A stretch of DNA of 32,000 nt from Erysipelotrichaceae bacterium (GCA_030604855.1 JAUVVC010000002.1:60001-92000), one strand, 5' to 3'. Positions 8,598 through 32,000 are shown, counted from the first letter of the stretch. Numbers and translations are program-made. The notes: a model not told the origin generated them from the sequence alone.

Positions 8598-8603
8598 GGA
8601 AAT

Positions 8604-9686: not shown

Positions 9687-9699
9687 GGACATTAAATGG

Positions 9700-9728
9700 T
9701 TGGAAATGGTAGCGTTTTCTTCTATAAT
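9700..9728 (+). promoter_or_regulatory. Candidate sigma-A promoter of the tandem NBD-FtsX operon
   Basis: TTGGAA (9700-9705), 17-nt spacer, TATAAT (9723-9728), about 38 nt upstream of the TTG start. Confidence 0.5.
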
Positions 9729-9766
9729 AAGAATGTCGAATTTTTGACTAGAACCGAGGGGACATT

Positions 9767-11092: not shown

Positions 11093-11101
11093 GAGTCCAC
11101 C

Positions 11102-18227: not shown

Positions 18228-18860
18228 ATGCCACTATTTGAAGAGTTTAATCGTGCATTTCAAGCTTTGGATCAAGAACACTGCATCCAATTGACGTATG
18301 ATGCTTTATCCAATGAAATCATCAGCGTTGAAGACTTATATGAGAATGTATTACGTAAAGCGTTATCGGTACTGACGGATAAAGAGACGGATCCCACTCA
18401 CAAGATCTGGAGAGAGCATGTTCAATCGTCCATAGTTCGAACCATCATCGAAATGACCTATCCTTTTGTCATAAAACAACGCATTGAGATTTTAAATAAA
18501 AAAGCTGCTGTCGTATGTCCGGATGGTGAACAACATGAATTGGGTGCGCGCATGGTCAGTGACTATCTGAGGATGCTCGGGTATGAGACCTATTTTGTAG
18601 GACGAGATACACCCCGTTTGGAGTTTTTGGACATGATCAAGACCTTGAACTTGGATGTCGTGGCCATCAGTGTCACCAATTACTACAATCTATCCAAAGC
18701 GCTTCAAACCGTTGTGGATGTCAAAGAGCATTTTCCGGAAGTGACTTTGGTTGCGGGTGGACGCGGCTTGGATGCGAATGCGGAAGTCTTGGTTAAGCAC
18801 GATGTCTTGATCACCCATGATCTTAATGATTTGAAGCGTATTTTAGGAGGAAACGCATGA
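18228..18860 (+). CDS. Stand-alone cobalamin-binding-domain protein (helical cap plus Rossmann B12 domain, CarH-like, no DNA-binding domain)
   Basis: 210 aa with no signal peptide or TM helix. An N-terminal helical region contains an REH dyad. The ExHxxG variant of the lower-ligand motif (GEQHELG, nt 18528-18545) is followed by VVAISV and LVAGGRG blocks. Its stop overlaps the next gene's start (ATGA). Confidence 0.7.
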   Translation: MPLFEEFNRAFQALDQEHCIQLTYDALSNEIISVEDLYENVLRKALSVLTDKETDPTHKIWREHVQSSIVRTIIEMTYPFVIKQRIEILNKKAAVVCPDGEQHELGARMVSDYLRMLGYETYFVGRDTPRLEFLDMIKTLNLDVVAISVTNYYNLSKALQTVVDVKEHFPEVTLVAGGRGLDANAEVLVKHDVLITHDLNDLKRILGGNA

Positions 18861-19996
18861 AACTCGCTTATTCAATTGCCAAGCGTTTTCTTGGTTATAA
18901 CAAAGGTCAGACGATTCTGATTGCGGTGGGCATCGCAATCGGTGTTTCGGTACAGATCTTCATCGGTCTATTGATTACAGGTCTGCAGGACAGTTTGATT
19001 GATAAGACGGTCGGCAGCACACCCCACATCACGATCACGCAAGAAGATGAAACAAGTTTTGAAGAATTCATGATTGATGGCGGCTCATTTACTGCGGTCG
19101 CGTATCAAGCGGAAGGTCCGGCGTTTGCCTTAAGTGAGAATGACGATGCGTCTGTCTTGCTTAGAGGTTTGAGTGCCGATGGGGATAAATTATACAAATT
19201 AAGCGAGAAATTGATCGAAGGCAGGATGCCAAGCGCAATGAACGAAGTCATCTTGGGTTCAGGCCTGTCGGAAAAGTTGGATGTGAGCTTGAATGATGAG
19301 TTGACATTGCGGACCATAACGAATCAAAGTGTTGTAGTGAACATCGTAGGCATCGTCGATCTCAAAGTCGATGCCATCAACAATTCCTGGGTCTTAGCAA
19401 CCTTAGCAACGGCACAAAGTCTATTCGAACTCAAGGATGAGATCACATCCATCGCCATCCAAGTCGAAGATGTGTTTGAGGCCGATGTCTTGGCGGAAGG
19501 GATCATGACATTTGAGCGTGTGAATGAGCAGAATTTGAGCGTTGTGAACTGGAAGGATCAGAATGAAGATCTCTTAAGTGGTTTGAATGGACAAAGCATC
19601 TCAAGCCTCATGATCCAGGTGTTTGTCTTGGTCTCTGTGGTTTTGGGCATCGCCAGTGTTCTTGCGATCACCGTCTTACAAAAATCAAAGCAAATCGGTA
19701 TTTTGAAAGCTATGGGCATCACAGATAAGACAGCCAGTTGGATCTTTTTGTTTCAAGGTTTATTGCTGGGATTCTGGGGTGCGATCCTTGGGGTATTGTT
19801 TGGGGTGGGACTGCTCTTATCCTTTACAACTTTCGCACGAAATCCAGATGGTAGTGCATTGATTCCAATCGCTTTTGATCCTGTGTTCATCGCATTCTCA
19901 GGTTCCATCGCCATTTTTTCAGCATTGCTTGCGTCTTTCATACCTGCTCAACGTTCGAAGAAGTTGAGCCCAATCGAGGTCATTCGCAATGGATAA
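18857..19996 (+). CDS. LolC/E-like FtsX-family ABC permease with extracytoplasmic domain
   Basis: 379 aa. TM1 is followed by a ~210-aa extracytoplasmic domain and three C-terminal TM helices with KSKQIGILKAMG. Confidence 0.85.
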   Translation: MKLAYSIAKRFLGYNKGQTILIAVGIAIGVSVQIFIGLLITGLQDSLIDKTVGSTPHITITQEDETSFEEFMIDGGSFTAVAYQAEGPAFALSENDDASVLLRGLSADGDKLYKLSEKLIEGRMPSAMNEVILGSGLSEKLDVSLNDELTLRTITNQSVVVNIVGIVDLKVDAINNSWVLATLATAQSLFELKDEITSIAIQVEDVFEADVLAEGIMTFERVNEQNLSVVNWKDQNEDLLSGLNGQSISSLMIQVFVLVSVVLGIASVLAITVLQKSKQIGILKAMGITDKTASWIFLFQGLLLGFWGAILGVLFGVGLLLSFTTFARNPDGSALIPIAFDPVFIAFSGSIAIFSALLASFIPAQRSKKLSPIEVIRNG

Positions 19997-20678
19997 TATT
20001 CTAGAACTTAAAAACATTACAAAATTCTATGGAGACAAAATCAAGACGCAGGTTCTCTTTGGACTGGATTTAAGCTTTGAACGTGGTAGTTTCAACTCGA
20101 TCATTGGACAATCTGGGAGTGGCAAGAGTACCTTGTTGAATATTCTAGGAACCTTGGATCGTCCCACGGATGGAGATATCATCATCAATGGAAAGAACAC
20201 GAAAACATTGAATGCGAATGCATTGTCTCAATTACGCAATGAGAACCTTGGTTTCATCTTCCAATTCCACTATTTGTTGCCAGAGTTCACAGCGTTGGAA
20301 AACATCTTGATGCCGGTCCGTATCTTAGGCAAGAAAATCGATAAAGAAGTTATGGCTCGTGCAGAAGAGTTGATTGAACTGGTGGGTTTGAGCAAAGTCA
20401 AAAACAACTTGGCAACTCAGATGTCCGGTGGTCAGCAACAACGCACAGCCATTGCACGTGCTTTGATGAATCAAGCCAGCATCATTCTTGCGGATGAACC
20501 AACGGGCAATTTGGATTCCGATACGACCGAACAGATCTATGATTTGATGCGCATGATCAATAAGAAATATCAAACGACATTCATCATCATTACGCATGAT
20601 CAAAGTGTGGCCGAAAAGACAGATCGCATCATCGAGATCAAAGATGGTCGAATTTTGATGGATGTTCGGAAGAAATAA
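19989..20678 (+). CDS. LolD-like ABC transporter ATP-binding protein
   Basis: 229 aa with GQSGSGKST, the LolD-type block FIFQFHYLLPEFTALENI, MSGGQQQR and ILADEPTGNLD. It overlaps the permease by 8 nt. Confidence 0.88.
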   Translation: MDNILELKNITKFYGDKIKTQVLFGLDLSFERGSFNSIIGQSGSGKSTLLNILGTLDRPTDGDIIINGKNTKTLNANALSQLRNENLGFIFQFHYLLPEFTALENILMPVRILGKKIDKEVMARAEELIELVGLSKVKNNLATQMSGGQQQRTAIARALMNQASIILADEPTGNLDSDTTEQIYDLMRMINKKYQTTFIIITHDQSVAEKTDRIIEIKDGRILMDVRKK

Positions 20679-20806: not shown

Positions 20807-21253
20807 ATGTTAATCACAAAGGAAAGTATCTTACTCGATTGCGCTATCAAAGATAAAGAGCAGATCATTCGCAGAATGGCGAGTCATGCGTTGCAGATCA
20901 ATCGCATCACGGATGTTGAGCCCTTTGTTCAAGCAGTCTTGCATCGTGAGGGTGAGTTCAGCACGGGTGTAGGGTATGGCATCGCGATTCCACATGGAAA
21001 ATCAAATGTCGTACGAGAGGCATTTGTGTTATTCTGTCGGGTCGATCATGTGGATTGGTCGTCCTTGGATGGCACAGATGTCGATATGGTGTTTATGATT
21101 GGTGTCCCTGAGATGGATACGAGCAATGAACACTTGAAAATATTGGCCTTGTTGTCTCGCAAACTGATGAAGGATGAATTCCGTCAAGCTTTGCGCAACG
21201 CACTACATGAAGATGAGATCATGGAAATCCTTAAGAAATGGGAGATCATCTAA
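20807..21253 (+). CDS. PTS EIIA component, fructose/mannitol (EIIA-2) type
   Basis: 148 aa with the phosphorylatable-His block GYGIAIPHGK. An AAGGAG RBS precedes it. Confidence 0.85.
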   Translation: MLITKESILLDCAIKDKEQIIRRMASHALQINRITDVEPFVQAVLHREGEFSTGVGYGIAIPHGKSNVVREAFVLFCRVDHVDWSSLDGTDVDMVFMIGVPEMDTSNEHLKILALLSRKLMKDEFRQALRNALHEDEIMEILKKWEII

Positions 21254-21254
21254 G

Positions 21255-22019
21255 ATGTTGGTCGCAGAACGACGAAATCACATTCTAGAATTATTGAAAG
21301 CGAACAGAAGCATCACGGTTTCAGATCTGTGTACGGCTTGCGATGCATCGGAAGCAACGATTCGACGGGATCTTTCATGGTTGGAAGCGAATGGGAAACT
21401 AGAGCGGACACATGGGGGTGCCGTGGTGAACCCAAGTGAACGAATATTTGAAGAAGACATGCTTACTTTAAGAGAAGGCAAAGCCTTGCTTGAGAAGCAA
21501 ATCATTGCGAGAAAAGCGTTTGAACTTATCCATGATTATGACTCCATTGTTTTGGATGCCGGTACAACAACCTTTGAATTGGCGAGATTGATTGGACAAT
21601 CGGATCTCCATTTGACCATCATCACCAATTCAATGATCGTCTTCAAAGAGTTGGCCAACAATCCCAATGTGGAGTTGATCATCTTGGGTGGAAAGGTGCG
21701 TCGCAATACCTTGGCGTCCGTGGGAAGCGTCGCAGTCGAGCTGATGCAGCGACTCTATGTGGATAAAGCCTTTGTTGGAACCAATGGTGTGGGCTTGAAT
21801 GAAGGCTTCACCACATCGGATATGGATGAAGCAAGCATTAAACGTGCGATGTTGTTGACAGCGAAACATCGCATCATCCTCGCGGATCATACAAAATTCA
21901 ATAAAGTGTATATGAATCAATTCGCTTCATCTTCGATGATCGATACCTTGATAAGTGATGGCCAGGAGACCAACGTATTGGATGCGTTTGTTGAGCATTA
22001 CGACATCAAGATACTTTAG
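21255..22019 (+). CDS. fruR: DeoR-family transcriptional repressor of the fructose operon
   Basis: The N-terminus RRNHILELLK...ITVSDL...SEATIRRDL is a DeoR HTH, followed by a C-terminal sugar-phosphate sensor domain. The ATG at 21255 lies 1 nt after the EIIA stop. The track ORF start at 21174 is an in-frame overlap artefact. Confidence 0.88.
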   Translation: MLVAERRNHILELLKANRSITVSDLCTACDASEATIRRDLSWLEANGKLERTHGGAVVNPSERIFEEDMLTLREGKALLEKQIIARKAFELIHDYDSIVLDAGTTTFELARLIGQSDLHLTIITNSMIVFKELANNPNVELIILGGKVRRNTLASVGSVAVELMQRLYVDKAFVGTNGVGLNEGFTTSDMDEASIKRAMLLTAKHRIILADHTKFNKVYMNQFASSSMIDTLISDGQETNVLDAFVEHYDIKIL

Positions 22020-22027
22020 GAGGTCCT

Positions 22028-22957
22028 ATGATCACAACCGTTACTTTAAATCCTGCGATTGATAAGACAATCACGGTTGAGCAGTTTCGTTTGAATGCTG
22101 TCAACCGGGTCTTGCGTGTCTATGAAGATATTGGAGGTAAGGGCATCAATGTATCTAAAGTCTTGCATCATTTGAACAATCGAACGGTCGCATGTGGTTT
22201 TATTGGCGAAGCCAATTATGGATGGGTACAACCACATATCAAACGACTTGGTTTGAGTACGGATTTCGTATTTGTCGATGCACTGACACGGATCAACACT
22301 AAAATCATCGATCCGATCGCCAAAAGTACAACCGATATCAATGAAACAGGTTTTAGTGTTTCTCAAGTTCAAATCGAGCAATTGAAAATCATGTTGCAAG
22401 CGTATGCGAAACAGAGCAAGTTCATGGTTTTTAGTGGAAGCATTTGCAAAGGCATTGATTTAAAGGCTTACCAATCACTCATAGAAGCCGTTCATCCAAC
22501 CCCTTGGGTTTTGGATGCGGACCGAGACGTTTTGCGAGCAGGTTTGGCATTGCAGCCCTATCTGATCAAACCGAACATTCATGAATTGGAGGATCTCTTA
22601 CAGATTCGTTTGAAGAATCATGATGAAATCGTTCGTGAAGTGCGTCGTTTGATCCAAGGATACAAGATTCACTATTGTTTGGTATCCATGGGAGAACAGG
22701 GAAGTATCTTGATCACTCAGGATCTTGCGTATTATGCAAAGGCATTGGATATTGAACTGGTTACGACCGTTGGAGCGGGGGATGCCATGCTTGCAGGCTT
22801 CTTATCATGTATCACTAAAGGATGCTCAGATGAGGAAGCATTGCGGACAGCGACAGCTTGTGGTGCGATTGCGGTGAGTGGCATTTCGTTAAGTGCTTTC
22901 AATAATATGGATATCGAAGCTTTGATTCAACGTGTTGAGTTGACAAAATTAGACTAG
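22028..22957 (+). CDS. fruK: 1-phosphofructokinase (PfkB family)
   Basis: 309 aa with TVTLNPAIDKT at the N-terminus and the C-terminal PfkB signature GAGDAMLAGF. Confidence 0.9.
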   Translation: MITTVTLNPAIDKTITVEQFRLNAVNRVLRVYEDIGGKGINVSKVLHHLNNRTVACGFIGEANYGWVQPHIKRLGLSTDFVFVDALTRINTKIIDPIAKSTTDINETGFSVSQVQIEQLKIMLQAYAKQSKFMVFSGSICKGIDLKAYQSLIEAVHPTPWVLDADRDVLRAGLALQPYLIKPNIHELEDLLQIRLKNHDEIVREVRRLIQGYKIHYCLVSMGEQGSILITQDLAYYAKALDIELVTTVGAGDAMLAGFLSCITKGCSDEEALRTATACGAIAVSGISLSAFNNMDIEALIQRVELTKLD

Positions 22958-23002
22958 GACTGCATCCGTAAGGATCAAAATACATCCAAGGAGGAAAGAA
23001 AG

Positions 23003-24349
23003 ATGAAAGTTTTAGCAGTTACAGCTTGTCCAACTGGGATCGCACACACATACATGGCTGCGGAGGCCATAAGTGAAGCGGCTCAAAAAAAGGGTTATGA
23101 AGTCAAAGTTGAAACGCGGGGTTCAGTTGGCGTGGAAAACGAATTGAGTCATGAAGACATCAAGAATGCGGACTTCATTGTATTGGCGTGTGATACCGCT
23201 GTACCAACCGATCGTTTTGTTGGTAAAAAAGTTTTGAGTGTTTCTGTCAGTGAAGCGATCAAGGATGCGGAAGGATTATTGTTAAAAGCTCAAAATGCAC
23301 CTGTCATGAAAAGTCAGACGCAAAGCAGTGAGCCCGAGGAGAATAAGGGTCAGAACAGTTTCTATAAGCATCTCATGAGTGGGGTTTCCTTTATGATTCC
23401 ATTTGTTGTGGCAGGTGGGATCGCGATCGCAATCAGTTTTGCTTTCGGTTATGATGCGTTTCAGACACCAGGCACACTTCCGGCTTACTTAATGGCGATT
23501 GGTGGTTCCGGTGGATTTGGATTGATGGTACCGATTCTTGCAGGTTACATTGCTTACTCCATCGCGGATCGACCAGGTTTAGCGCCGGGTATGATTGGGG
23601 GTGTTGTAGCAGGTCAGATTGGTGCTGGTTTCTTAGGTGGTATGGTCGCTGGGTTCTTAGCGGGTTATGTTGTCAATGCGATTAAGAAGTACATCAAGCT
23701 TCCAAAATCACTTCAAGGCATCATGCCGGTTCTGATCATTCCTGTGTTTGGTTCATTGATCGTTGGTTTGTTGTTGTTTTATGTCTTGGGAAGCCCAATG
23801 GCGGCGATCAATAAAGCCGTTGCGGATTTCTTAATGGGATTAAGTGGGGGAAGTGCGATTGTACTTGGCTTGTTGTTAGGTTTGATGATGGCTTTCGATA
23901 TGGGTGGACCTATCAATAAAGCAGCTTATGCGTTTGGTACTGCAACTTTGGTTGCAGGTCAAGGCTCTGCTGTCATGGCAGCGGTCATGGCTGGGGGAAT
24001 GGTTCCACCATTGGGAATTGGTTTGGCTACCTTGGTTTTTAAAAAGAAGTTCATTGCTGCAGAACAAGAAGCAGGTAAGGCGAATCTTGTGTTAGGTGCT
24101 AGTTTCATTACGGAAGGTGCGATTCCATTTGCCGCTGCGGATCCATTGCATGTCATGCCTTCAATCATGGCTGGAGGTGCATTGGCGGGTGCCTTGTCCA
24201 TGGCATTTGGAGCGACCTTGGCTGTTCCACATGGTGGGATCTTCGTTCTGTTTGCTGTTGAGAATATCATTGGTTATGTGATAGCGATTGGTGCTGGTTC
24301 CCTAGTGACGGCAGTATTGCTCGGTGTGCTTAAAAAAGACGTTGCATAA
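23003..24349 (+). CDS. fruA: PTS fructose-specific EIIBC component
   Basis: 448 aa. The N-terminal EIIB has the active-site Cys block AVTACPTGIAHTYMAAE. A multi-TM EIIC domain follows with Gly-rich helices and a GITEGAIPF-like block (FITEGAIPF). Confidence 0.92.
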   Translation: MKVLAVTACPTGIAHTYMAAEAISEAAQKKGYEVKVETRGSVGVENELSHEDIKNADFIVLACDTAVPTDRFVGKKVLSVSVSEAIKDAEGLLLKAQNAPVMKSQTQSSEPEENKGQNSFYKHLMSGVSFMIPFVVAGGIAIAISFAFGYDAFQTPGTLPAYLMAIGGSGGFGLMVPILAGYIAYSIADRPGLAPGMIGGVVAGQIGAGFLGGMVAGFLAGYVVNAIKKYIKLPKSLQGIMPVLIIPVFGSLIVGLLLFYVLGSPMAAINKAVADFLMGLSGGSAIVLGLLLGLMMAFDMGGPINKAAYAFGTATLVAGQGSAVMAAVMAGGMVPPLGIGLATLVFKKKFIAAEQEAGKANLVLGASFITEGAIPFAAADPLHVMPSIMAGGALAGALSMAFGATLAVPHGGIFVLFAVENIIGYVIAIGAGSLVTAVLLGVLKKDVA

Positions 24350-24354
24350 CATCG

Positions 24355-24383
24355 AACACCTCATCTATTGAGGTGTTTTTTTT
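24355..24383 (+). terminator. Intrinsic terminator after fruA
   Basis: AACACCTCA-tctat-TGAGGTGTT followed by a T run (about 8 T including the stem end). Confidence 0.85.
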
Positions 24384-24452
24384 ATGGAACAGCTTAATCC
24401 ATTCTTAATCTTAGCTATGATAGAATAACAGTGAAGTAGAGGAGGACAGTCT

Positions 24453-25889
24453 ATGAACTTTATGAAACGAGCTTTTTTAAGCTTGATACGCCGCAAAGGA
24501 AAGTCATTGATTCTTTTGGTCATTATTTTCATCTTGAGCAACGTCATGGCGGGATCGATCGCAATCGGTCAAGCATCCCGTAATGTCGAAAAAACCATGA
24601 AACAACAACTGGGAGCGAATGCGACGGTTGAGATGGATTGGGAAAAGATGCAGAACTGGACAGAGGAACAGTGGCAGAATATCCAATATGTCACACCTTC
24701 GATGGCCGATCAGATCGGTGCTTTGCCGTATGTGAAGTACTACGATTACAATTCGGAAGCGTACATCAATTCAACGACATTGAAAATGTATGATCCAAAC
24801 ATGATGGACCAACAGTATAATTACTTTCCACTGAGAGGGGTTAATTATGCCCCGGTTTTGGATATTGCGAATGGAACGGCTGATCTGGTTGAGGGACGTG
24901 TTTTCAGCGATGAAGATATTGCCAAGGCCAATTATGTGGTTTTGATCTCGGATAAACTCGCAGAACAGAACAATCTTTTTGTCGGTGATATCGTTATGTT
25001 GAATAATGAGATTCGAATTTGGGATCAGGCTACGAACCAAGAATCTGTGTTTGCAACGCGTGATATCGCATTGGAAATCATTGGGATCTTTAGCCCGAAA
25101 GTCAATACCAATCAAGAAGAAAATGGAGGTTGGATCGATTATACACCTTTCAATCGGATGTATGTCCCAAATGGTGTGGTTCATGCGGAAAACCGTTGGA
25201 TGACGGAACAATACATGATTGCCTATCCAGATTCAGGCATCACACCGGACCAATTGGAACGTGTATACATCAATCCGGTCTTTGTGTTGAACAATCCTGA
25301 AGAAGTTGAAAGTTTTAGAACCGAAGCGATGACCTATCTACCGGATTACTATAAAGTCAATGTTTCCAGCGATGCCTATGATTCCGTTGCAGGTCCGATT
25401 AAATTCATCGGTTCCTTGTCCAACACCATTCTTTATGTGGCGATCGGGGCAACGATCTTGATACTAAGTTTGGTTGTCATTCTCTTCTTGAGAGATCGTA
25501 AACATGAGTTGGGAATCTACTTATCCTTGGGTGAAAGCAAATCCAAAGTCATGGCTCAAATTTTGATTGAAGTCGTGGCGATTGCGGTCTTGGGCATCAC
25601 CTTGTCCTTGTTCACCGGTAACAGCATTGCGGAGGCCACCTCGCAATCGATGATGGATCTCAGAGCAGGCATTGAAGGGGATGGACCAGATGGACCGATT
25701 TATCGTGATTCAATGATCTACAACCCAGGGGGCATCACGGAAGAAGATGTGATGGAAGCCTACAGTATTGAGTTCTCTTGGGATTATGTCTTGATTCTGT
25801 ATGGTGTTGGTGTGGGTACGGTCTTGTTGTCAAGCATCGCACCAATGATCTATATTCTTCGTTTGAAACCGAAGAAGATCATGATGTAG
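24453..25889 (+). CDS. FtsX/MacB-type ABC permease with large extracytoplasmic domain
   Basis: 478 aa. TM1 (LILLVIIFILSNVMAGSIAIG) is followed by a ~280-aa extracytoplasmic region and three C-terminal TM helices with DRKHELGIYLSLG. A GAGGAGG RBS precedes it. Confidence 0.85.
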   Translation: MNFMKRAFLSLIRRKGKSLILLVIIFILSNVMAGSIAIGQASRNVEKTMKQQLGANATVEMDWEKMQNWTEEQWQNIQYVTPSMADQIGALPYVKYYDYNSEAYINSTTLKMYDPNMMDQQYNYFPLRGVNYAPVLDIANGTADLVEGRVFSDEDIAKANYVVLISDKLAEQNNLFVGDIVMLNNEIRIWDQATNQESVFATRDIALEIIGIFSPKVNTNQEENGGWIDYTPFNRMYVPNGVVHAENRWMTEQYMIAYPDSGITPDQLERVYINPVFVLNNPEEVESFRTEAMTYLPDYYKVNVSSDAYDSVAGPIKFIGSLSNTILYVAIGATILILSLVVILFLRDRKHELGIYLSLGESKSKVMAQILIEVVAIAVLGITLSLFTGNSIAEATSQSMMDLRAGIEGDGPDGPIYRDSMIYNPGGITEEDVMEAYSIEFSWDYVLILYGVGVGTVLLSSIAPMIYILRLKPKKIMM

Positions 25890-25898
25890 GAGGGTGTT

Positions 25899-26573
25899 AT
25901 GGAAATCATCAGAGTTGAAAATCTAAATTATTACTATCAGGATGGTGAGACGATTCGTACCATTCTTAAGGATTTGACCGTATCGTTTGAAAAAGGTAAG
26001 TTCTACACGATCTTGGGACCTTCTGGCTGTGGTAAGACGACGTTTTTATCCTTGTTGGCCGCTTTGGATGAACCAAAGTCTGGAACCATTTATTACAACG
26101 ATAAAGACATCAAAGCGATTGGGTATGAGAAGTATCGTCGGAACATGATCAGCATCATCTTTCAAAGTTACAACTTGGTCCCTTACATGACGGCGGTTGA
26201 GAATGTCATGATTCCAATGGCCATCACCGAGAATGAGATACCCAAGAACAGCAAAGAAGTTGCTTACAACCTCTTGGACTATATCGGTTTAACCAAGTCT
26301 AAAGCCAATCGTGTCGTCAATAAGCTCTCCGGTGGTGAGCAACAACGTGTGGCAATCGCGCGTTCACTTGCAAGCAACGTCGATATCATCTTTGCGGATG
26401 AACCGACCGGAAACTTGGACCAAGAGCTTGAAAATGAAATCATTGGTGTTTTTAAAGATCTGGCGCATCATCACAATAAGTGTGTCATCATGGTCACGCA
26501 TTCCAAAGAGATTGCGGACATGTCTGATGTCTCTTATCAGTTGCGGAAGGGAGTGTTGAGTCATAATGAGTGA
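25899..26573 (+). CDS. ABC transporter ATP-binding protein (MacB/LolD-like NBD)
   Basis: 224 aa with GPSGCGKTT, LSGGEQQR, IIFADEPTGNLD and VTHS motifs. A GGAGGG RBS precedes it. Confidence 0.9.
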   Translation: MEIIRVENLNYYYQDGETIRTILKDLTVSFEKGKFYTILGPSGCGKTTFLSLLAALDEPKSGTIYYNDKDIKAIGYEKYRRNMISIIFQSYNLVPYMTAVENVMIPMAITENEIPKNSKEVAYNLLDYIGLTKSKANRVVNKLSGGEQQRVAIARSLASNVDIIFADEPTGNLDQELENEIIGVFKDLAHHHNKCVIMVTHSKEIADMSDVSYQLRKGVLSHNE

Positions 26574-27966
26574 TTTCTTAAGTAAGTTCACCAAGTCTGA
26601 GTACGATAAAACGGTGGAGGAAAAAGAAGTCATGACGCAAACAGAGCCACCGCGTAAGAAAGAAGACAAAGAAGATAAGAAGTCTAAAGAAGAAAAGAAA
26701 AAAGAGAAGAAGCTTGCGAAGCAAATGGAGATGGAAGCTGAACTGCTTGAGGAACCCAAACCTGTTGTCGTGAGTGCACGTAGAAGTTCCCACATCGAAG
26801 AAACGACTATCGATCCGAGTTATAAAGCCAATCAACGTAAGAAGTGGATTGGGGCGATCGTAGCTGTTGTCTTGTTCGTGGCTTTGGGAACAGCGTTCTA
26901 TTATTTCATCAATCAAGTCAAGATTCCAGATTATGTTGGAAAACCAGTATCCGAGTTGAAGGCTTGGGCAAATCGCAACGATGTGACTTTGGAAATCACT
27001 GAGGTTTTCTCACTCGAAGTCTCTAAAGATTACATCATTTCATTGGATCCTTTAGCCAACTCGAAGATTCAAAAAGGCTCGAACATGAGCGTTGAAATCA
27101 GTAAGGGTGCGGATCCGGATGAGCAGATTTTGGTTCCGGACTTCACGGGAAACACGTACTTTCAGATTCAAGAATGGCTGAGTTCAAATAAGATCAATAA
27201 TCTTCGCATCACCTATGAATACCATGATGAGATACCTGCGAATGAATTTGTACGCATCGTGTTCAATGATAAAAACATCAAACCTGAAACTTACACACGT
27301 AAAGATTATGGTTTGATCTACATATCGAATGGACCTGAAGTGTTCACACCGAACATTGAAGTACCAGACTGGACGACCGCACATCAGGATGTGAGCATCG
27401 TTCAAGCTTGGGCGAATCAGAATCAAATTGATTTGACGGTTGTCAAAGTAAGTTCGAATGTTGTGGTGGGTGGAGTTATTTCGCAAAGTGTCGCTCCAAA
27501 GACAATGGTTGCGAAAAAATCAAAGATGACCATTACCATTTCACAAGGTGAAGAAGTCATCGTCCCTGATTTCTCTAAAATCAAAAAGGATGATGCGGCT
27601 TCGATGAGCTCGAGTGGTTACACCTTGCGTTTCGTCGAAATGTATCAACCTAAAGGTGGCGCAACATTTGGTAGTCTGATTTGGCAAGATGTCAAAGCAG
27701 GTACGAAAATCAGCCCAACGAGTACAAAAACTGTTGTGGTCACAGTCTACTACTCCTTAGGTCAGCCGTATTTGACAAAGCTTGGAAGTGAAAGAGAAAT
27801 TCCTGAGTTCATCTACAACGAAAACTTGAAGTCCGCAAATTTCACGTATGAAGTTCAATACGTGAGTGATGTGGCGGATAAGGGCACAATCATTGAGATG
27901 TTGCCATCCAATCAGTTCGTTGATCCAGGTCAACACATCATTTTTAAAGTTTCAACGGGCAGTTAA
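26566..27966 (+). CDS. Single-pass membrane protein with 4-5 extracellular PASTA repeats and a K/E-rich cytoplasmic tail; no kinase or transpeptidase domain
   Basis: 466 aa with a cytoplasmic low-complexity K/E tract (aa ~27-63) and a TM helix WIGAIVAVVLFVALGTAFYYFI (nt ~26845-26910). Repeats start at VKIPDY, ILVPDF, IEVPDW and VIVPDF and end in S-x-G (nt 26917-27762). A degenerate fifth unit follows. The start overlaps the ATPase stop by 8 nt. Confidence 0.75.
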   Translation: MSDFLSKFTKSEYDKTVEEKEVMTQTEPPRKKEDKEDKKSKEEKKKEKKLAKQMEMEAELLEEPKPVVVSARRSSHIEETTIDPSYKANQRKKWIGAIVAVVLFVALGTAFYYFINQVKIPDYVGKPVSELKAWANRNDVTLEITEVFSLEVSKDYIISLDPLANSKIQKGSNMSVEISKGADPDEQILVPDFTGNTYFQIQEWLSSNKINNLRITYEYHDEIPANEFVRIVFNDKNIKPETYTRKDYGLIYISNGPEVFTPNIEVPDWTTAHQDVSIVQAWANQNQIDLTVVKVSSNVVVGGVISQSVAPKTMVAKKSKMTITISQGEEVIVPDFSKIKKDDAASMSSSGYTLRFVEMYQPKGGATFGSLIWQDVKAGTKISPTSTKTVVVTVYYSLGQPYLTKLGSEREIPEFIYNENLKSANFTYEVQYVSDVADKGTIIEMLPSNQFVDPGQHIIFKVSTGS

Positions 27967-27970
27967 AATC

Positions 27971-28001
27971 AGAGTGTAACCGAACGAGTTACACTCTTTT
28001 T
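27971..28001 (+). terminator. Intrinsic terminator after the PASTA-repeat gene
   Basis: Perfect 10-bp stem AGAGTGTAAC-cgaacga-GTTACACTCT followed by TTTT. Confidence 0.85.
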
Positions 28002-28031
28002 ATGGTATTCTATCTTCAGCGAGGTAGAAAA

Positions 28032-28664
28032 ATGAAAATAGCTGTCATTGGAGCCAATGGGAAAGCAGGACGACTTATCGTAGAAGAAGCACAAAACCGT
28101 TGTCATGAAGTGCTGGCGATCGTTCGTGATCGCAGTAAACTTGATGTAAACTTTAACGTGCTTGAGAAAGATGTGTTGTCACTGGAACGTGATGATTTAA
28201 TGAATTTGGATGTACTTATAAACGCATTGGGTGCAGGAACACAAGATCCCATCCTTTATCAAGATGCGACGAAACATCTGATCGAAGTATTGGAAAACCT
28301 TCCAAAGCTTCGCTATCTGGTTGTGGGTGGGGCTGGAAGTCTTTTTACAGATTCAAGCATGACAAAGGCTTTATACGAAACAGAAACGTTTCCTGAAGTG
28401 ATCTATCCTACAGCCATGAACATGGCTAAAGCCTTAGAATTGTTGCGCGATAGTTCGATACAATGGACCTTCTTTAGTCCAGCGATCCAATTTGATTTCA
28501 AGGGTAGGCGTACAGGGGAATACCAATTAGGCAGTGAATGGGTCATCCTGAACCAGGCGAAAGACAGCTATATCAGTTATGCGGATTATGTCATTGCATT
28601 GATGGATGAAGTTGAGAAGCCACAGTTCATCTGTAAACGATTCACTGCGGTAAGTGAACGATAA
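28032..28664 (+). CDS. NAD(P)H-binding atypical SDR / NmrA-like oxidoreductase
   Basis: The N-terminus MKIAVIGANGKAGRLIVEEA is a Rossmann fold, and the size is ~210 aa. I prefer the ATG at 28032 (RBS GAGGT) because the track start at 28002 lies inside the upstream terminator. Confidence 0.75.
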   Translation: MKIAVIGANGKAGRLIVEEAQNRCHEVLAIVRDRSKLDVNFNVLEKDVLSLERDDLMNLDVLINALGAGTQDPILYQDATKHLIEVLENLPKLRYLVVGGAGSLFTDSSMTKALYETETFPEVIYPTAMNMAKALELLRDSSIQWTFFSPAIQFDFKGRRTGEYQLGSEWVILNQAKDSYISYADYVIALMDEVEKPQFICKRFTAVSER

Positions 28665-28693
28665 AAAAACTCAAGCTTAATTGCTTGAGTTTT
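28663..28693. terminator. Bidirectional intrinsic terminator between convergent genes
   Basis: A7-CTCAAGC-ttaatt-GCTTGAG-TTTT. The A run upstream and T run downstream let it work on both strands. Confidence 0.8.
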
Positions 28694-28695
28694 GC

Positions 28696-29586
28696 TTATT
28701 TGACTAAGTTGTGTTCTTTTAAGAAGTCGTAAGCGACTTGGTATGGATCTTCATCCAAGACATCGACGCGATAGTTTAATGCGATGGTGTTTTCTTGATT
28801 GAATAAACCTGTGACTTTGTTCAAGGCTGCTTCCACACCAGGAAATCTTTCTTCAATATCAGCCAATACGATGAATGAACCATTGTATTCCGGGAAGAAT
28901 TTTTTGTCATCTTCAAGGAGAACCAAGTCTGACTTCAAGATCATTCCATCTGTCGAATAAGCCAATGTCACATCGAACTGCTCACTTTCCATTCCAACAT
29001 ATTTCAAGTCATTGGAAATGGGTGTTGCGGACTTGAAATCAAGTCCGTAGAATTCAGTGAATGGGATGAAACGGACAGTCCCATCTTCGTTAAAGAAGGT
29101 ATCCTCAGTCCCAAAGCGCAATTCTGAAGCGACTTTAGCTAAATCACTGATGGTTTTCAAATTGTATGCTTCTGCCGTTGTACGACGTACGGCGACGGCA
29201 TAGGTGTTCTCAAATCCCAGTTTATTAAGAAGTTTGACACCATAATCTTCTTGAGCTTTTTGATTGGCATAGTCGAATAGACTCATGCCTTCAGGAACTT
29301 CAGATACATCCCGATTCATGAAGGTGGCCATCATCGTTCCATCATAACTCAATGCCGCATGCATGCGACCTGCTTTGATTTCTGAGTGACCTAAAGAGGT
29401 AGACATATAGTCGGTAACCTCGACTTCATGATCTGTGTATTCGTTTATTAGGATTTCTGCCATGTGCGAGAAGATGTACATCTCTCCAAAGTCACCATTT
29501 GCGATAACGATCTTATTCTCATTCTTAGCGGTGCACCCACTAAAGATCAGTAAACTTAATAACAATGCTGCAAGTATTTTTTTCAT
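28696..29586 (-). CDS. opuCC: Osmoprotectant (glycine betaine/choline/carnitine) ABC substrate-binding lipoprotein
   Basis: 296 aa with a signal peptide and lipobox LIFSGC. OpuBC/OpuCC-type body. Confidence 0.8.
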   Translation of the reverse strand: MKKILAALLLSLLIFSGCTAKNENKIVIANGDFGEMYIFSHMAEILINEYTDHEVEVTDYMSTSLGHSEIKAGRMHAALSYDGTMMATFMNRDVSEVPEGMSLFDYANQKAQEDYGVKLLNKLGFENTYAVAVRRTTAEAYNLKTISDLAKVASELRFGTEDTFFNEDGTVRFIPFTEFYGLDFKSATPISNDLKYVGMESEQFDVTLAYSTDGMILKSDLVLLEDDKKFFPEYNGSFIVLADIEERFPGVEAALNKVTGLFNQENTIALNYRVDVLDEDPYQVAYDFLKEHNLVK

Positions 29587-29587
29587 A

Positions 29588-30190
29588 TTATACTCCTCTC
29601 TGATTTTTTGGTAATAGTCTATTCTCGTAATAACTCATGATGGCATCGACGACGATGGCCATGGCCATGAGTGTCAAGGTTCCTTGTAAGATAAATGTGA
29701 AGTTCATGGTACGGATACCACGGTATAGGACGTAACCTAAACCACCGCCACCAACAAAGAAACCCATGACTGCTGAACCAATCGAATTGACCAGCGAAAT
29801 GCGCATTCCCGCAAAAATCAGGGGAAAGGCAAGGGGAAGCTCCACTTTGAAGAGTTTGGTCATTTTTGGCATGCCCATCCCTTCTGCTGCTTCCTTGATG
29901 GCTGGAGCGACTTCCATCAAACCGACCATCGTGTTACGAACGACCGGTAATAAGTTGTACAAGGTGAGACCGACGATGACGGTTGTCGGGCTGGCTCCAA
30001 AGAAGACCATAAGCAAACCGAGGGTTGCCAAAGTTGGAATGGTTTGAAATAAATCAAACACAAAGATGACATACTTTCTAACCTTCGGGAATAGATAAGC
30101 GATGATTCCAAAGATCAAACCAAATACGATGGTGAATAAAGCTGCCATAAGCACTAAATAGATGTGCTGTGTCACATGTTCTAGTTTCAT
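29588..30190 (-). CDS. opuCD: Osmoprotectant ABC transporter permease
   Basis: 200 aa, multi-TM BPD-transporter-type permease. It starts 1 nt after the upstream permease's stop. Confidence 0.8.
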   Translation of the reverse strand: MKLEHVTQHIYLVLMAALFTIVFGLIFGIIAYLFPKVRKYVIFVFDLFQTIPTLATLGLLMVFFGASPTTVIVGLTLYNLLPVVRNTMVGLMEVAPAIKEAAEGMGMPKMTKLFKVELPLAFPLIFAGMRISLVNSIGSAVMGFFVGGGGLGYVLYRGIRTMNFTFILQGTLTLMAMAIVVDAIMSYYENRLLPKNQRGV

Positions 30191-30191
30191 A

Positions 30192-30839
30192 TTAATTCCT
30201 CCTCAAGCCACGCGGTGTGAGTTTGACTTGGACTTTGTCAATCAGAAAGCCAAGACCGATGGCCATCAAGGCCGCTGGAATCGATCCCATGACAATGAAC
30301 TGTTTCATATTACTGTTGATGCCGATATAGATGAATTCACCTAAACCGCCTTGACCGATCATTGCGGCAAGAACCGCCCAACTGACCGTGTAGATGGTGG
30401 ACATCCGGATCCCCGTGATGATGCTGTTGAGTGCCATTGGCAATTCAACACGCCATAAGAGAATCCAAGGATTCATACCGATGCCTCGACCCGCTTCAAT
30501 CAAAGCCGGGTCCACCGTTACGATGCCTGTATAGGCATTTTTTAAGACTGGTAGAATGGCATAAACCGACAAGGCGATGATGATCGTTTCAGGACGCATT
30601 CCGATGTAAATGAAGAGCACACCGATAAACACAATCCCTGGAATCGTCTGGAAAATGCCCAGTATCGGCATTAGATATTTCGCAGCTTTTTTAAAGCGCG
30701 ACAAGGCAATCGCAAGAATGACCGCGATGATCGATCCGATCGTCACGGATATGATCACAAAGTAGAAATGGGTTAGGATGGCGTTCATTAGGCGTGGTGC
30801 GTAACGAACCCACATGCCCCAATCAAACATTGTTCTCAC
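30192..30839 (-). CDS. opuCB: Osmoprotectant ABC transporter permease
   Basis: 215 aa, multi-TM BPD-type permease paralogous to the adjacent one. It overlaps the ATPase gene by 17 nt. Confidence 0.8.
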   Translation of the reverse strand: MRTMFDWGMWVRYAPRLMNAILTHFYFVIISVTIGSIIAVILAIALSRFKKAAKYLMPILGIFQTIPGIVFIGVLFIYIGMRPETIIIALSVYAILPVLKNAYTGIVTVDPALIEAGRGIGMNPWILLWRVELPMALNSIITGIRMSTIYTVSWAVLAAMIGQGGLGEFIYIGINSNMKQFIVMGSIPAALMAIGLGFLIDKVQVKLTPRGLRRN

Positions 30840-31947
30840 CCCACAAGGTGGTGCTTAGTGATCGAGCGATTGAGCCTTTGGTAATGATGCCGACGACTTT
30901 TTGTTTGTCATTCAAGACGACAACGAAGTCTGCACGTTGATTTTGAATCGCATCCATGGCTTCTTTGGCATGGGCCTCGGTGGATAAGGTGATGACATCG
31001 TTACGAATGATGTTTTCAATCGTTTGTCCAGGGACACCACGCTTTTGAAGATCATCGATATTGACGATGCCCAAATAGGTGTTCGTTTTATCGACAACCA
31101 CAACGGAGTCCGTGCCTTTACTGCGCATCAATTCCAAACTCTCAAGAACCTTACGTTTCGAATCCACCTTTAAGACATTGGTCTTCATGATCTCACCACA
31201 GGTCAACTCAATCGTATTGTTTTGTTTTGTATGCTTACCCATGAACTGACGGATGATATCCGCTTTCGGATTTCTTAACATTTCCTCAGGGCTGTCCATT
31301 TGGACGATGTCCCCTTTATCCATAAAGACGATTTTATCGCCTAGTTTAATGGCTTCTTCCATGTCATGGGTGACAAACACGGTTGTGATGTTCAACTTTT
31401 GTTGAAGATCCTTGAGTTCTTCCTGTAAAGTATCCCGTGTGATGGGATCCAGGGCCCCGAAGGGTTCATCCATCAAGAGGACAGGGGGGCGTGCGGCGAG
31501 AGCTCTGAGCACTCCGACACGTTGTTGTTGACCACCGGACATCTCATTGGGATATTTATGGGCGTATTCTTCATAGGGAAGATCGACCATCTCCAAGAGT
31601 TCACGAACACGTTTGTCCATGTCTTCTTTCTCCCATTTCAGGAGCCTTGGAACGACACTGATGTTCTGTGCAACGGTCATGTTGGGGAATAAGCCAATCT
31701 GTTGGATGACGTACCCAATGTGTGTTCTTAAATCGGTTAAATCTTTTTGTGTTATATCTTCATTGTCAATTAATATCTTTCCAGAATCCATGGGTATCAA
31801 TCGATTGATCATCTTTAAAGTGGTCGTTTTACCACAGCCGGATGGACCAATAAGTACAATAAATTCACCATCGTTGATGGTAAAACTTAAGTCATTAATG
31901 ATTGGTTTTCCATGATAAGATTTGGAAATATGCTGAAATTCAATCAT
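30823..31947 (-). CDS. opuCA: Osmoprotectant ABC transporter ATP-binding protein with tandem C-terminal CBS domains
   Basis: NBD motifs GPSGCGKTT, MSGGQQQR and LLMDEPFGALD, plus two C-terminal CBS-like repeats. I prefer the ATG at 31945-31947 (RBS AGGAGGAAAA) to the track start at 31989. Confidence 0.9.
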   Translation of the reverse strand: MIEFQHISKSYHGKPIINDLSFTINDGEFIVLIGPSGCGKTTTLKMINRLIPMDSGKILIDNEDITQKDLTDLRTHIGYVIQQIGLFPNMTVAQNISVVPRLLKWEKEDMDKRVRELLEMVDLPYEEYAHKYPNEMSGGQQQRVGVLRALAARPPVLLMDEPFGALDPITRDTLQEELKDLQQKLNITTVFVTHDMEEAIKLGDKIVFMDKGDIVQMDSPEEMLRNPKADIIRQFMGKHTKQNNTIELTCGEIMKTNVLKVDSKRKVLESLELMRSKGTDSVVVVDKTNTYLGIVNIDDLQKRGVPGQTIENIIRNDVITLSTEAHAKEAMDAIQNQRADFVVVLNDKQKVVGIITKGSIARSLSTTLWGENNV

Positions 31948-32000
31948 AGTTTTCCTCCTATTCACGCAAATATACCAACATTTTATCATATAAATGTCTC

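Follow-up and report, generated by a model that had tools for sequence, protein, structure and literature searches.

What does a string of PASTA units do when it is attached to neither a kinase nor a penicillin-binding protein, and when its gene overlaps that of an ABC transporter ATPase? The question is raised by three genes in a 32,000-nt stretch of DNA from an Erysipelotrichaceae bacterium (GCA_030604855.1, JAUVVC010000002.1:60001–92000), referred to here as the window. They encode, in this order, a permease, its ATPase (NBD) and a PASTA protein (Table 1). An initial annotation, made from the sequence alone, placed the three genes between two terminators, and a scan of the region found a hairpin with a T-run at each boundary, among 11 terminator-like sites against 4.4 expected. 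The genes on the 5′ side of the first terminator are a DeoR regulator and a PTS EIIBC. Upstream of the permease gene lies a direct repeat to which an OmpR-family response regulator may bind. It is nearly invariant, its first copy completely so, across eight loci of the Erysipelotrichaceae type that share about 75% permease identity, and all eight of its matches in 2 Mb of compared loci are upstream of such a triad. The 8-nt overlap between the NBD and PASTA genes, as first annotated, indicates translational coupling.

Table 1. Features of the three-gene locus, numbered from the first nucleotide of the window.
Feature	Position	Strand	Basis or remark
Terminator-like hairpin with T-run	24354–24378	+	10-pair stem; 5′ boundary of the three-gene unit; ends upstream fructose PTS operon
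Direct repeat CTTAATC-N4-CTTAATC, 11-bp period	24393–24410	+	Spans −35 position of permease-gene promoter
Extended −10 element TGATAGAAT	24418–24426	+	TGTGATA/TATGATA conserved across compared loci
Shine-Dalgarno GGAGG, permease gene	24441–24445	+	Read from sequence
Type VII ABC (MacB/FtsX-fold) permease, 478 aa	24453–25889	+	ORF, Pfam, hydrophobicity, AlphaFold model
ABC ATPase (NBD), 224 aa	25899–26573	+	Pfam, NCBIfam, motif inspection
8-nt overlap ATGAGTGA, NBD stop/PASTA-protein start	26566–26573	+	ATG at 26566, TGA at 26571–26573
Kinase-less, PBP-less single-pass membrane PASTA protein, 466 aa	26566–27966	+	ORF, Pfam, NCBIfam, AlphaFold, Foldseek
N-terminal cytoplasmic motif MSDFLSKFTKSEYD, residues 1–14	26566–26607	+	Family consensus MSDFLSxFxKxxY
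Hypervariable K/E-rich disordered linker, residues 15–78	26608–26799	+	pLDDT mostly below 50 (22–27, 29–82)
Juxtamembrane motif E-x-E-I-D-P-x-Y, residues 79–86	26800–26823	+	ETTIDPSY in window; basic stretch next
Single transmembrane helix, residues 92–118	26839–26919	+	Hydrophobicity, AlphaFold model
PASTA unit 1, residues 117–186	26914–27123	+	40.0 bits; pLDDT above 90
PASTA unit 2, residues 187–262	27124–27351	+	15.4 bits, below cut-off; most divergent unit
PASTA unit 3, residues 263–330	27352–27555	+	30.5 bits
PASTA unit 4, residues 331–400	27556–27765	+	21.6 bits
PASTA unit 5, residues 401–466	27766–27963	+	21.2 bits; pLDDT about 95; PASTA-like
Terminator-like hairpin with T-run, operon end	27971–27997	+	Hairpin/T-run scan

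The permease has four hydrophobic segments (TM1–TM4; residues 15–41, 318–349, 364–393 and 444–470), an ectodomain of 276 aa between TM1 and TM2 (residues 42–317, nt 24576–25403) and a variable outer loop between TM3 and TM4 (residues 394–443), which bears out the annotated 4-TM FtsX permease with an extracytoplasmic domain of about 280 aa. It scores 41.2 bits against the Pfam model MacB_PCD (cut-off 27) and 36.8 bits against FtsX (cut-off 25.5). Its AlphaFold model (pLDDT 79.6) has full-length Foldseek matches to MacB (5lil, 1.5e-12), LolCDE, Spr0694/5 (5xu1), YbbAP, HrtBA, YtrEF (9o9x) and BceAB, and the modelled ectodomain resembles the periplasmic domain of MacB (3ftj, TMt 0.62) and, with a TMt of 0.69, the YknZ ectodomain (5f9q). 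The NBD (113 bits against Pfam ABC_tran) carries every motif claimed for it: Walker A (GPSGCGKT), a Q-loop, the LSGGE signature, Walker B (IIFADE) and an H-loop (VTH). With four TM helices and an FtsX C-terminal domain, a MacB-type ectodomain and a cognate ATPase with intact motifs, the pair belongs to the Type VII ABC systems.

Several known systems share parts of this architecture. The highest TM-score of the permease model was obtained with B. subtilis YtrEF (9o9x, TMq 0.47), likewise a Gram-positive system with a 4-TM permease and a separate NBD; a sequence search of solved structures gave no significant match between the two permeases, and the ytr operon is not known to include a PASTA gene. 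The permease of BceAB-BceRS systems likewise has the FtsX fold and a large ectodomain (7tcg and 8s5g are the Foldseek matches), and in some clades the triad, too, is associated with OmpR-type two-component systems. It is nevertheless not a BceAB-type transporter: the permease has four TM helices, whereas the BceAB type has ten and carries its ectodomain between TM7 and TM8; instead of a dedicated BceRS-like partner, a neighbouring two-component system occurs at only a minority of loci; and Bce systems lack a PASTA subunit. The permease fold is shared with E. coli YbbAP (Foldseek match 9ge6). YbbAP-TesA is a recently reported case of a Type VII ABC machine whose extracytoplasmic partner is unconventional (PMC12646458). 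TesA, however, is a soluble enzyme that hydrolyses lipids, the permease YbbP is duplicated and has 10 TM helices, and no PASTA domain is involved.

The third protein has the predicted charged cytoplasmic tail (24 K/R and 22 D/E in its 94 N-terminal residues), followed by one TM helix and a PASTA string. A check against the Pfam PASTA model (PF03793), set beforehand, gave 95.2 bits for the whole protein over five stretches. The four clear repeats of the annotation start with VKIPDY (residue 118), ILVPDF (188), IEVPDW (264) and VIVPDF (331). When the units were also scanned one by one, units 1 and 3 passed the cut-off of 23.2 bits and units 2, 4 and 5 fell below it. The fifth unit, described earlier as degenerate, is present and PASTA-like; the most divergent is unit 2, the model of which has the helix-plus-strands pattern of the others. 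The modelled ectodomain (pLDDT above 90) is matched best by the PASTA strings of S. aureus PrkC (3py9, E 3e-13) and PknB (2kui, E 8e-11), with the PBP2x PASTA region also among the Foldseek matches. Just about 90 residues lie outside the PASTA units and the TM helix, and the protein gave no match to a Pkinase domain in Pfam and NCBIfam searches, or to a transpeptidase or PBP dimerisation domain in Pfam. The absence of attached enzymatic domains, also claimed at the outset, means that it is neither a PASTA Ser/Thr kinase (Stk1/PknB family), having no Hanks-type kinase domain, nor a class B PBP with PASTA units (PBP2x type), having no transpeptidase domain.

Conservation within the cytoplasmic part is sharply divided. 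In the N-terminal motif, which is partly helical in the AlphaFold model (residues 5–7 and 10–18), F4, L5 and F8 are present at all 78 loci compared and Y13 at 77; in the juxtamembrane motif, D83 is found at 78/78 loci and Y86 at 77/78. The mean pairwise identity of the N-terminal motif (0.71) is close to that of the NBD (0.74, the highest of the three proteins), while that of the linker is 0.23. Two near-invariant motifs separated by a hypervariable linker point to a cytoplasmic binding partner.

The permease-NBD-PASTA order on one strand is found at 78/78 assessable loci from named genomes and at 3/3 long outlier homologues, so that co-inheritance is strict at 81/81 loci. These belong to Erysipelotrichaceae, Bacillaceae, Enterococcaceae, Carnobacteriaceae, Streptococcus, Tissierellia and one Coriobacteriales genome, spanning at least five orders and two phyla. 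The −8 junction recurs at 57 or more of the 78 loci, and no further neighbour gene is conserved beyond the triad across the 81 loci. Evolutionary distances also correlate (Spearman 0.6–0.8), a value expected from shared ancestry alone. Because of this synteny and overlap, the comparative genomics strongly supports the proposal that the PASTA protein is the partner of the transporter. No published description of a MacB/FtsX-type pair with a PASTA protein was found in full-text literature searches, NCBIfam, PADLOC or Rfam, and NCBIfam holds no curated model for the third protein, in keeping with the novelty first suspected. The triad is a real, widespread and uncharacterised Type VII ABC variant with a new class of partner.

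The regulatory context varies between clades. Genes for an OmpR-type response regulator and a histidine kinase are directly upstream of the triad at seven Enterococcus loci, six of which, like the locus L033, also carry an additional FtsX permease that has an NBD of its own. At two Vagococcus loci a response regulator gene begins 31–68 nt downstream of the triad; at three Oceanobacillus loci the distance is about 0.7 kb. ECF-like promoters (GAAAC or GGAAC, 15–18 nt, CGTCTA) precede the triad at 10 Bacillaceae loci, against 0.33 expected, and an ECF sigma/anti-sigma pair is directly upstream at one locus (L071). In the window's own clade, the conserved direct repeat at the −35 position adds a candidate element to this wiring. 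These motifs were defined post hoc, after inspection of the data, and cover about 30 of the 81 loci, many of them phylogenetically related; such OmpR-type two-component or ECF-sigma-like wiring suggests a role in envelope stress.

On balance, we favour a reading in which the three genes form one functional system, with a permease-dimer/NBD-dimer machine and a PASTA rod engaged in envelope-stress-induced mechanotransmission to the wall. The machine is most likely a permease dimer with MacB-like ectodomains joined to an NBD dimer. The PASTA protein is its predicted obligate third subunit, with five PASTA units projecting into the wall and the cytoplasmic motifs on a floppy tether. Either the NBD or the permease, on its cytoplasmic face, may serve as the docking site for the N-terminal or juxtamembrane motif, and the TM helix of the PASTA protein may lie next to the permease. 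The permease ectodomain would then relay the effect of ATP binding and hydrolysis to the PASTA rod, and the cycle would drive no substrate across the membrane. The rod may bind lipid II or nascent, uncrosslinked peptidoglycan, and a module induced by envelope stress could protect or remodel sites of cell-wall synthesis. Lipid-II-cycle intermediates might, for example, be freed from wall-active antimicrobials by analogy with BceAB, for which target protection acting on lipid-II-cycle targets is proposed, as outlined in PMC7038271. In these terms the triad probably couples the hydrolysis of ATP to the cell wall.

Several points count against this reading. The PASTA-protein TM helix is only moderately conserved (top-residue frequency 0.42), and none of 10 long homologues proved to be a natural fusion that joins PASTA units to an NBD, a permease or an enzyme. 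One locus (L074) has a paralogous permease/NBD pair without a PASTA gene, so such pumps can work lacking a PASTA partner. The PASTA domains of PonA2 and S. aureus PBP1 reportedly bind neither muropeptides nor beta-lactams, which weighs against the wall-ligand part of the proposal.

Signalling might instead run inward, with the PASTA string sensing lipid II, muropeptides or the state of the wall and gating the ABC ATPase, so that ATPase and permease replace the Ser/Thr kinase output. PASTA Ser/Thr kinases (PknB, PrkC/Stk1, StkP, IreK) share the topology of the third protein (a cytoplasmic N-terminus, one TM helix and PASTA units outside) and are the closest matches to its ectodomain in both sequence and structure, closer than PBP-type strings. 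The NCBIfam model PknB_PASTA_kin (NF033483) matches it at 107.6 bits (cut-off 450) over model positions 265–511 only, the post-kinase part, and conserved motifs on a flexible tether would suit a regulatory, NBD-binding peptide. However, the kinase domain is replaced by a cytoplasmic part of about 90 aa that has two short motifs and a disordered linker but lacks a folded output domain; the gene is the obligate companion of an ABC pair, where PASTA-kinase genes accompany a PP2C phosphatase; and a MacB-like ectodomain of this size hints at work performed on the outer side of the membrane. We regard inward signalling as rather unlikely.

A still less probable view is that the PASTA protein is a passive adaptor, an MFP-like stalk or anchor through the thick wall that binds no specific wall ligand and serves a pump clearing the membrane of an antimicrobial peptide or toxin. 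MacAB-type pumps (YknXYZ, S. pneumoniae Spr0693-0694-0695) do combine a 4-TM FtsX-type permease, a large MacB-like TM1–TM2 ectodomain and an NBD of the same subfamily with an operon-encoded third single-pass membrane protein (YknX, Spr0693), in which, as in the PASTA protein, an N-terminal TM helix precedes an elongated ectodomain. Their structures 5lil, 5gko, 5nik, 5xu1 and 5f9q are matched by the triad permease in Foldseek, those of the MacB and YknZ ectodomains included. The top NCBIfam matches of the NBD are bacteriocin-export, LolD and DevA types, every one below its cut-off, and stress-type regulation would fit a resistance pump. In contrast to these pumps, the triad has its NBD on a separate polypeptide and the gene order permease-NBD-partner, its permease is marginally similar in sequence to solved MacB proteins (E about 0.01–0.7), and its third protein is a PASTA string where MacAB-type pumps have an HlyD/MFP adaptor (MacA, YknX, Spr0693). 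Pfam searches found no HlyD-family adaptor in the triad or in the conserved flanks of the 81 loci, and the triad is thus not a MacAB-type pump with a membrane-fusion protein. The five PASTA units are, moreover, evenly conserved (0.51–0.56), including the family-specific positions W134, N138, W204 and W282, which suggests more than a spacer.

In FtsEX, another Type VII ABC machine, ATP-driven motion is described as being passed to an extracytoplasmic, wall-directed partner (EnvC, PcsB, CwlO, RipC) with no substrate transport, as outlined in PMC7668044, PMC6705773 and PMC10694151. The triad could similarly regulate a peptidoglycan hydrolase whose gene lies elsewhere, with the PASTA protein positioning or activating it in the manner of EnvC, SweCD, PcsB or CwlO. 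PASTA domains are wall-associated and FtsE (TIGR02673) is among the best NCBIfam matches of the NBD, but at 168.6 bits it is below the equivalog cut-off of 264.85, and the MacB-like ectodomain is far larger than the small ectodomain of FtsX. FtsEX partners are coiled-coil or hydrolase proteins; the PASTA protein is membrane-anchored with conserved cytoplasmic motifs, has no hydrolase domain and shows no coiled coil in its AlphaFold model. The flanks of the compared loci have no conserved gene for a hydrolase, a coiled-coil protein or a LytM protein. The triad is accordingly not a member of FtsEX, and an FtsEX-like role is very improbable. That the third gene is functionally separate and merely co-transcribed with an ordinary ABC exporter, a view with which the lack of PASTA fusion proteins would agree, is scarcely credible given the syntenic loci across orders and phyla, the conserved overlapping stop and start, and the finding of no PASTA-family member without the permease/NBD pair among those examined.

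A further possibility, though a doubtful one, is a kinase-free PASTA device for signalling or actuation, in which the PASTA string would recognise, or hold on to, lipid II or nascent peptidoglycan and would be wired to the ABC motor through the TM helix and the two cytoplasmic motifs. If so, the state of the wall would control ATP hydrolysis, or hydrolysis would mechanically move a wall-bound rod. Such a device would give PASTA sensors a new output logic, with an ABC motor replacing the Ser/Thr kinase, and would add a new class of partner to the Type VII ABC mechanotransducers.

The triad consists of a permease gene, an ABC ATPase (NBD) gene and a gene for a PASTA protein, bounded at either end by a terminator-like hairpin with a T-run. 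The permease has four hydrophobic segments, the first two (TM1 and TM2) being separated by a loop of 276 aa, and passes both Pfam MacB_PCD (41.2 bits) and FtsX (36.8 bits). The NBD is an ABC ATPase (113 bits) in which Walker A, the Q-loop, the LSGGE signature, Walker B and the H-loop are all found. Its stop overlaps the start of the PASTA gene by 8 nt, with the ATG lying in ATGAGTGA. The third protein comprises a charged tail of approximately 90 aa, a single TM helix (residues 92–118) and repeats that start at residues 118, 188, 264 and 331. Pfam PASTA matches the whole protein at 95.2 bits in five stretches, which score 40.0, 15.4, 30.5, 21.6 and 21.2 bits when units 1–5 are scanned singly. 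Domain searches of this protein found neither a kinase nor a transpeptidase, and the NCBIfam PASTA-kinase model aligns with its post-kinase half only (107.6 bits, where the cut-off is 450). The initial annotation had described three co-directional genes between two terminators, a four-TM FtsX permease with an extracytoplasmic domain of about 280 aa, an NBD with complete motifs, the 8-nt overlap, and PASTA repeats on a kinase-less, PBP-less protein with a charged tail and one TM helix. All of these features were recovered, the repeats also by the HMM.

Coordinates of the triad, its surroundings and features of related loci (L labels denote genomic loci with relatives of the PASTA gene)
Sequence	Feature	Coordinates	Strand	Product
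Window	FtsX-domain gene of tandem pair	9767-11092
Window	ABC_tran gene of tandem pair	11102-13132
Window	B12-binding cluster, whole	18228-20678
Window	B12-binding-domain protein gene	18228-18860
Window	MacB_PCD/FtsX permease gene of that cluster	18857-19996
Window	NBD gene of that cluster	19989-20678
Window	Fructose-type PTS operon	21174-24349
Window	Upstream terminator-like hairpin + T-run	24354-24378
Window	Direct repeat CTTAATC-N4-CTTAATC	24393-24410
Window	Extended -10, TGATAGAAT	24418-24426
Window	Triad permease ORF	24453-25889	+	478 aa
Window	Triad NBD ORF	25899-26573	+	224 aa
Window	Triad PASTA protein ORF	26566-27966	+	466 aa
Window	Downstream terminator-like hairpin + T-run	27971-27997
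Window	Perfect 11-pair hairpin	28666-28693
Window	Converging ABC operon	28696-31989	-
L017	BlaI/BlaR1-like pair	8846-10830
L074	Paralogous permease/NBD pair	8392-10576
L079	Additional permease paralogue	1541-3052
L081	Decayed megaplasmid locus	6450-7980
L083	BlaI/BlaR1-like pair	10191-12733

The gene order is strictly conserved. When one genome for each of 185,579 species was scanned, 224 relatives of the PASTA protein were returned, of which 80 loci were kept; the family is carried by at least 224 species genomes. Permease, NBD and PASTA genes follow one another on a single strand in 78/78 loci with enough flanking DNA, and three further loci end at contig edges with gene content consistent with this order. 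The -8 stop/start overlap is explicit in 57 of the 78, the other 21 junctions differing solely through a longest-ORF rule that chose an upstream start. Atypically long homologues from other sources (700, 614 and 543 aa) belong to the same triad in all three cases, and the synteny with FtsX and NBD genes that the initial annotation had proposed to check is thus confirmed. When all flanking ORFs were clustered, no other conserved neighbour was found. The triad occurs in Erysipelotrichaceae, many Bacillaceae (Oceanobacillus, Gracilibacillus, Sutcliffiella, Halalkalibacter and others), Enterococcus, Vagococcus, Granulicatella, Streptococcus, Tissierellia and one Coriobacteriales genome with GC-rich sequence. 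Haloalkaliphiles are common among these hosts. Mean pairwise identity is highest for the NBD (0.74), and is 0.49 for both the permease and the PASTA ectodomain. A correlation between the trees of the three proteins (Spearman 0.59–0.78) was set aside, since shared phylogeny accounts for it.

Several loci carry additional copies. The metagenome-assembled genome of Erysipelotrichaceae bacterium UBA4808 has two PASTA genes (L002 and L003), 91% and 76% identical to that of the window; the L003 permease and NBD reach 93% and 98% identity, which indicates a much faster divergence of the PASTA protein than of its partners. Locus L074 holds permease and NBD paralogues (24% and 50% identity) without a PASTA gene, the only PASTA-less sister pair seen; the reverse check of this permease subfamily covered its 120 best matches. 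A permease paralogue (34% identity) immediately upstream of the triad at L079 hints at a heterodimeric permease there.

The family itself consists of PASTA-only proteins, mostly of 440–520 aa. Searched exhaustively with a profile, 1.84 billion representatives yielded 906 proteins at E ≤1e-30; among the best 150 of these, roughly a hundred are full-length, single-stretch members and the remainder are longer PASTA-only proteins. Full-length members fall into roughly a hundred clusters at 50% identity, and the PASTA protein has no curated NCBIfam model. The ten long homologues considered as possible Rosetta-stone fusions (562–889 aa) hold only PASTA units or longer linkers and lend support neither way. 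The search also returned giant PASTA-repeat proteins (P0267, P0292, P0274 and P0308) of 2,100–3,350 aa with 15–29 PASTA-like stretches, and a distinct class of about 720–805 aa with 4–7 stretches and without the N-terminal motif. The candidate orthologue in Erysipelothrix rhusiopathiae, ‘PASTA domain protein’ ERH_1362, shows reduced protein and RNA in an avirulent derivative (PMC4968806).

The cytoplasmic tail of the PASTA protein is more than charged filler, and holds motifs that the initial annotation had missed. Residues 1–14 (MSDFLSxFxKxxY) are near-invariant, with F4, L5 and F8 present in 78/78 loci and Y13 in 77/78. A juxtamembrane motif, E-x-E-I-D-P-x-Y (D83 in 78/78, Y86 in 77/78), is followed by a basic stretch and the TM helix. 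Joining the two is a linker of 64 residues, predicted disordered, with a pairwise identity of only 0.23. That two short linear motifs on a flexible tether equal the ATPase in conservation points to a conserved binding site in the cytoplasm, most simply on the co-translated NBD or on the cytoplasmic side of the permease.

Predicted structures place both membrane proteins among known folds. In the AlphaFold2 model of the PASTA protein, built on an alignment of 96 homologues, the ectodomain has pLDDT >90 throughout, with five helix-plus-strand units above a long TM helix (84–115); on the cytoplasmic side, residues 22–82 are disordered and short N-terminal helices span residues 5–7 and 10–18. Its nearest Foldseek matches are kinase-type PASTA strings, namely S. 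aureus PrkC 3py9 (E 3e-13), 3m9g and M. tuberculosis PknB 2kui (E 8e-11), followed by the PASTA pairs of PBP2x and PBP1 at approximately 1e-4; sequence comparison with the PDB agrees with this placement beside kinase-type strings. The permease model (pLDDT 79.6) has full-length matches to MacB (5lil/5gko/5nik), LolC/E, Spr0694-0695 (5xu1), YbbP, HrtB, YtrF (9o9x) and BceB, the best TMq being 0.47 for YtrF 9o9x. Its modelled ectodomain matches those of MacB and YknZ. By sequence the permease is distant from all of these, with E ≥0.01 and matches in the TM region only.

The regulatory patterns were spotted by eye and counted afterwards, and are hence suggestive rather than proven. In the 74-nt triad leader, the direct repeat has an 11-bp period and lies across the -35 position. 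Among eight loci of the window’s clade, whose permeases are only about 75% identical, copy 1 is invariant, and copy 2 and the -10 are largely conserved; across 2 Mb of loci the pattern occurs eight times, always at this leader position. Direct repeats spaced one helical turn at -35 are typical of OmpR/PhoB-family activators. No two-component system able to bind the repeat is encoded in the 32-kb window. Seven Enterococcus loci have an OmpR-type regulator and a two-TM histidine kinase immediately 5′ of the triad, and a further FtsX permease, paired with an NBD of its own, occurs in six of the seven and in L033. In two Vagococcus loci a regulator gene begins 31–68 nt past the PASTA gene, and three Oceanobacillus loci have one about 0.7 kb downstream. 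Ten Bacillaceae loci (Gracilibacillus, Sutcliffiella and others; 0.33 expected) carry GAAAC/GGAAC-N15-18-CGTCTA upstream of the permease gene, which is the AAC...CGT signature of ECF sigma promoters; at L071 such a site lies between the triad and an ECF sigma/anti-sigma pair directly upstream. Bacillota as a rule run their envelope-stress responses through two-component systems and ECF sigmas, and about 30 of 81 loci bear a two-component, ECF or direct-repeat mark. Oceanobacillus-type loci (e.g., L013, L018, L035 and L036) have a palindrome, TCCAAG-N7-CTTGGAT(A), some 90–130 nt 5′ of the permease gene; this possible operator overlaps a -35-like TTGGAT and is present in 7 loci, where 0.77 were expected. 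An Rfam scan of 24200–28200 (E up to 1) found no RNA leader or riboswitch. A BlaI/BlaR1-like pair (Penicillinase_R and Peptidase_M56) lies 1–3 kb 3′ of the triad at L017 and L083; with two unrelated loci among 81, this linkage was dropped as a clue.

By fold and domain tests, the triad belongs to the Type VII ABC (MacB/FtsX-fold) superfamily, and it combines a MacB-fold permease, an intact ATPase and a PASTA string with conserved cytoplasmic motifs under obligate co-inheritance and translational coupling. That the PASTA protein is the transporter’s partner, as the initial annotation proposed, is supported as far as computation can test it, by the order (81/81) and the overlap. The three proteins very probably form one functional system, and a role in envelope stress or wall protection stands at about even chances, both by our own judgement rather than calculation. 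The three proteins would assemble as one complex, in which ATP-driven motion of the MacB-like ectodomain would act on, or together with, the PASTA rod. The rod may bind lipid II or nascent peptidoglycan, and envelope stress would induce the module, protecting or remodelling wall synthesis. Any such specific molecular action is a tentative proposal and, by the same judgement, rather unlikely to be correct in its particulars. It would be analogous to the target-protection model of BceAB (PMC7038271), and to the partner-directed mechanotransmission of FtsEX-EnvC (PMC7668044) and YbbAP-TesA (PMC12646458). The triad permease has 4 TM helices, whereas that of BceAB has 10.

Among the alternatives, inward signalling, with the PASTA protein gating the ATPase, would share the cytoplasmic motifs with the preferred partner reading. 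The PASTA protein could also be a passive, MFP-like stalk of an efflux pump; in contrast to MacAB, the triad lacks an HlyD adaptor. An FtsEX-like regulator of a hydrolase would fit the superfamily, but the NBD falls under the FtsE cut-off, the ectodomain is of another type and a coiled-coil/hydrolase partner is absent. Mere co-transcription of the PASTA gene with the transporter genes would account for a shared operon, and stands against the invariant order and the coupled start. An anti-phage defence system was rejected, PADLOC giving only generic ABC-ATPase matches and the PASTA part of PD-T4-6 models. So was a mobile or bacteriocin-linked element: clustered flanking ORFs include no conserved bacteriocin genes, and among 72,556 plasmids the only matches are two E. 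raffinosus megaplasmids, one with an IS110-decayed locus. That locus (L081, on pCX012922) retains a response-regulator fragment and two PASTA fragments between IS110 transposases, with permease and NBD missing.

Directly 5′ of the triad is a PTS operon (DeoR regulator, 1-phosphofructokinase-like kinase and EIIB-EIIC), which is syntenic in the closest relative, L001, indicating that the triad was inserted between housekeeping operons and not in an island. Further downstream, a hairpin that is terminator-like on both strands separates an NAD(P)H-binding protein gene from the converging ABC operon. Also in the window is a tandem gene pair that looks like a MacB-like fused pair, both products having an ABC ATPase domain at the N terminus and a membrane part at the C terminus; the first product passes Pfam FtsX, and the second passes ABC_tran only and has a long hydrophobic C-terminal half. 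Elsewhere, a cobalamin-binding-domain protein gene precedes an FtsX-type ABC pair with overlapping starts, an unusual combination.

Full-text literature searches (PASTA with FtsX, MacB, ABC permease or YtrEF), in a collection that lacks most subscription journals, found no description of the triad, in keeping with the novelty initially proposed; candidate papers dealt with IreK or were proteomic lists. The module has probably gone unstudied because none of the 80 retrieved genome loci comes from a standard Gram-positive model strain. To our knowledge, each Type VII ABC machine (MacB, LolCDE, FtsEX, BceAB and YbbAP) is defined by the extracytoplasmic partner that it drives, every new partner to date has led to a new envelope process, and PASTA domains have been studied almost solely as appendages of kinases and PBPs. 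The triad adds a new class of partner to the Type VII ABC machines, and its PASTA protein, which differs from PASTA kinases and PBPs in having no catalytic domain, represents a third setting for PASTA domains, both widespread and strictly conserved. Should the complex prove real, it would offer a tractable system for what PASTA strings bind and do mechanically, MSDFLSxFxKxxY would be a defined short peptide and candidate NBD-docking element, and the module may be a new determinant of envelope stress or antimicrobial tolerance in enterococci, streptococci, alkaliphilic bacilli and gut Erysipelotrichaceae.
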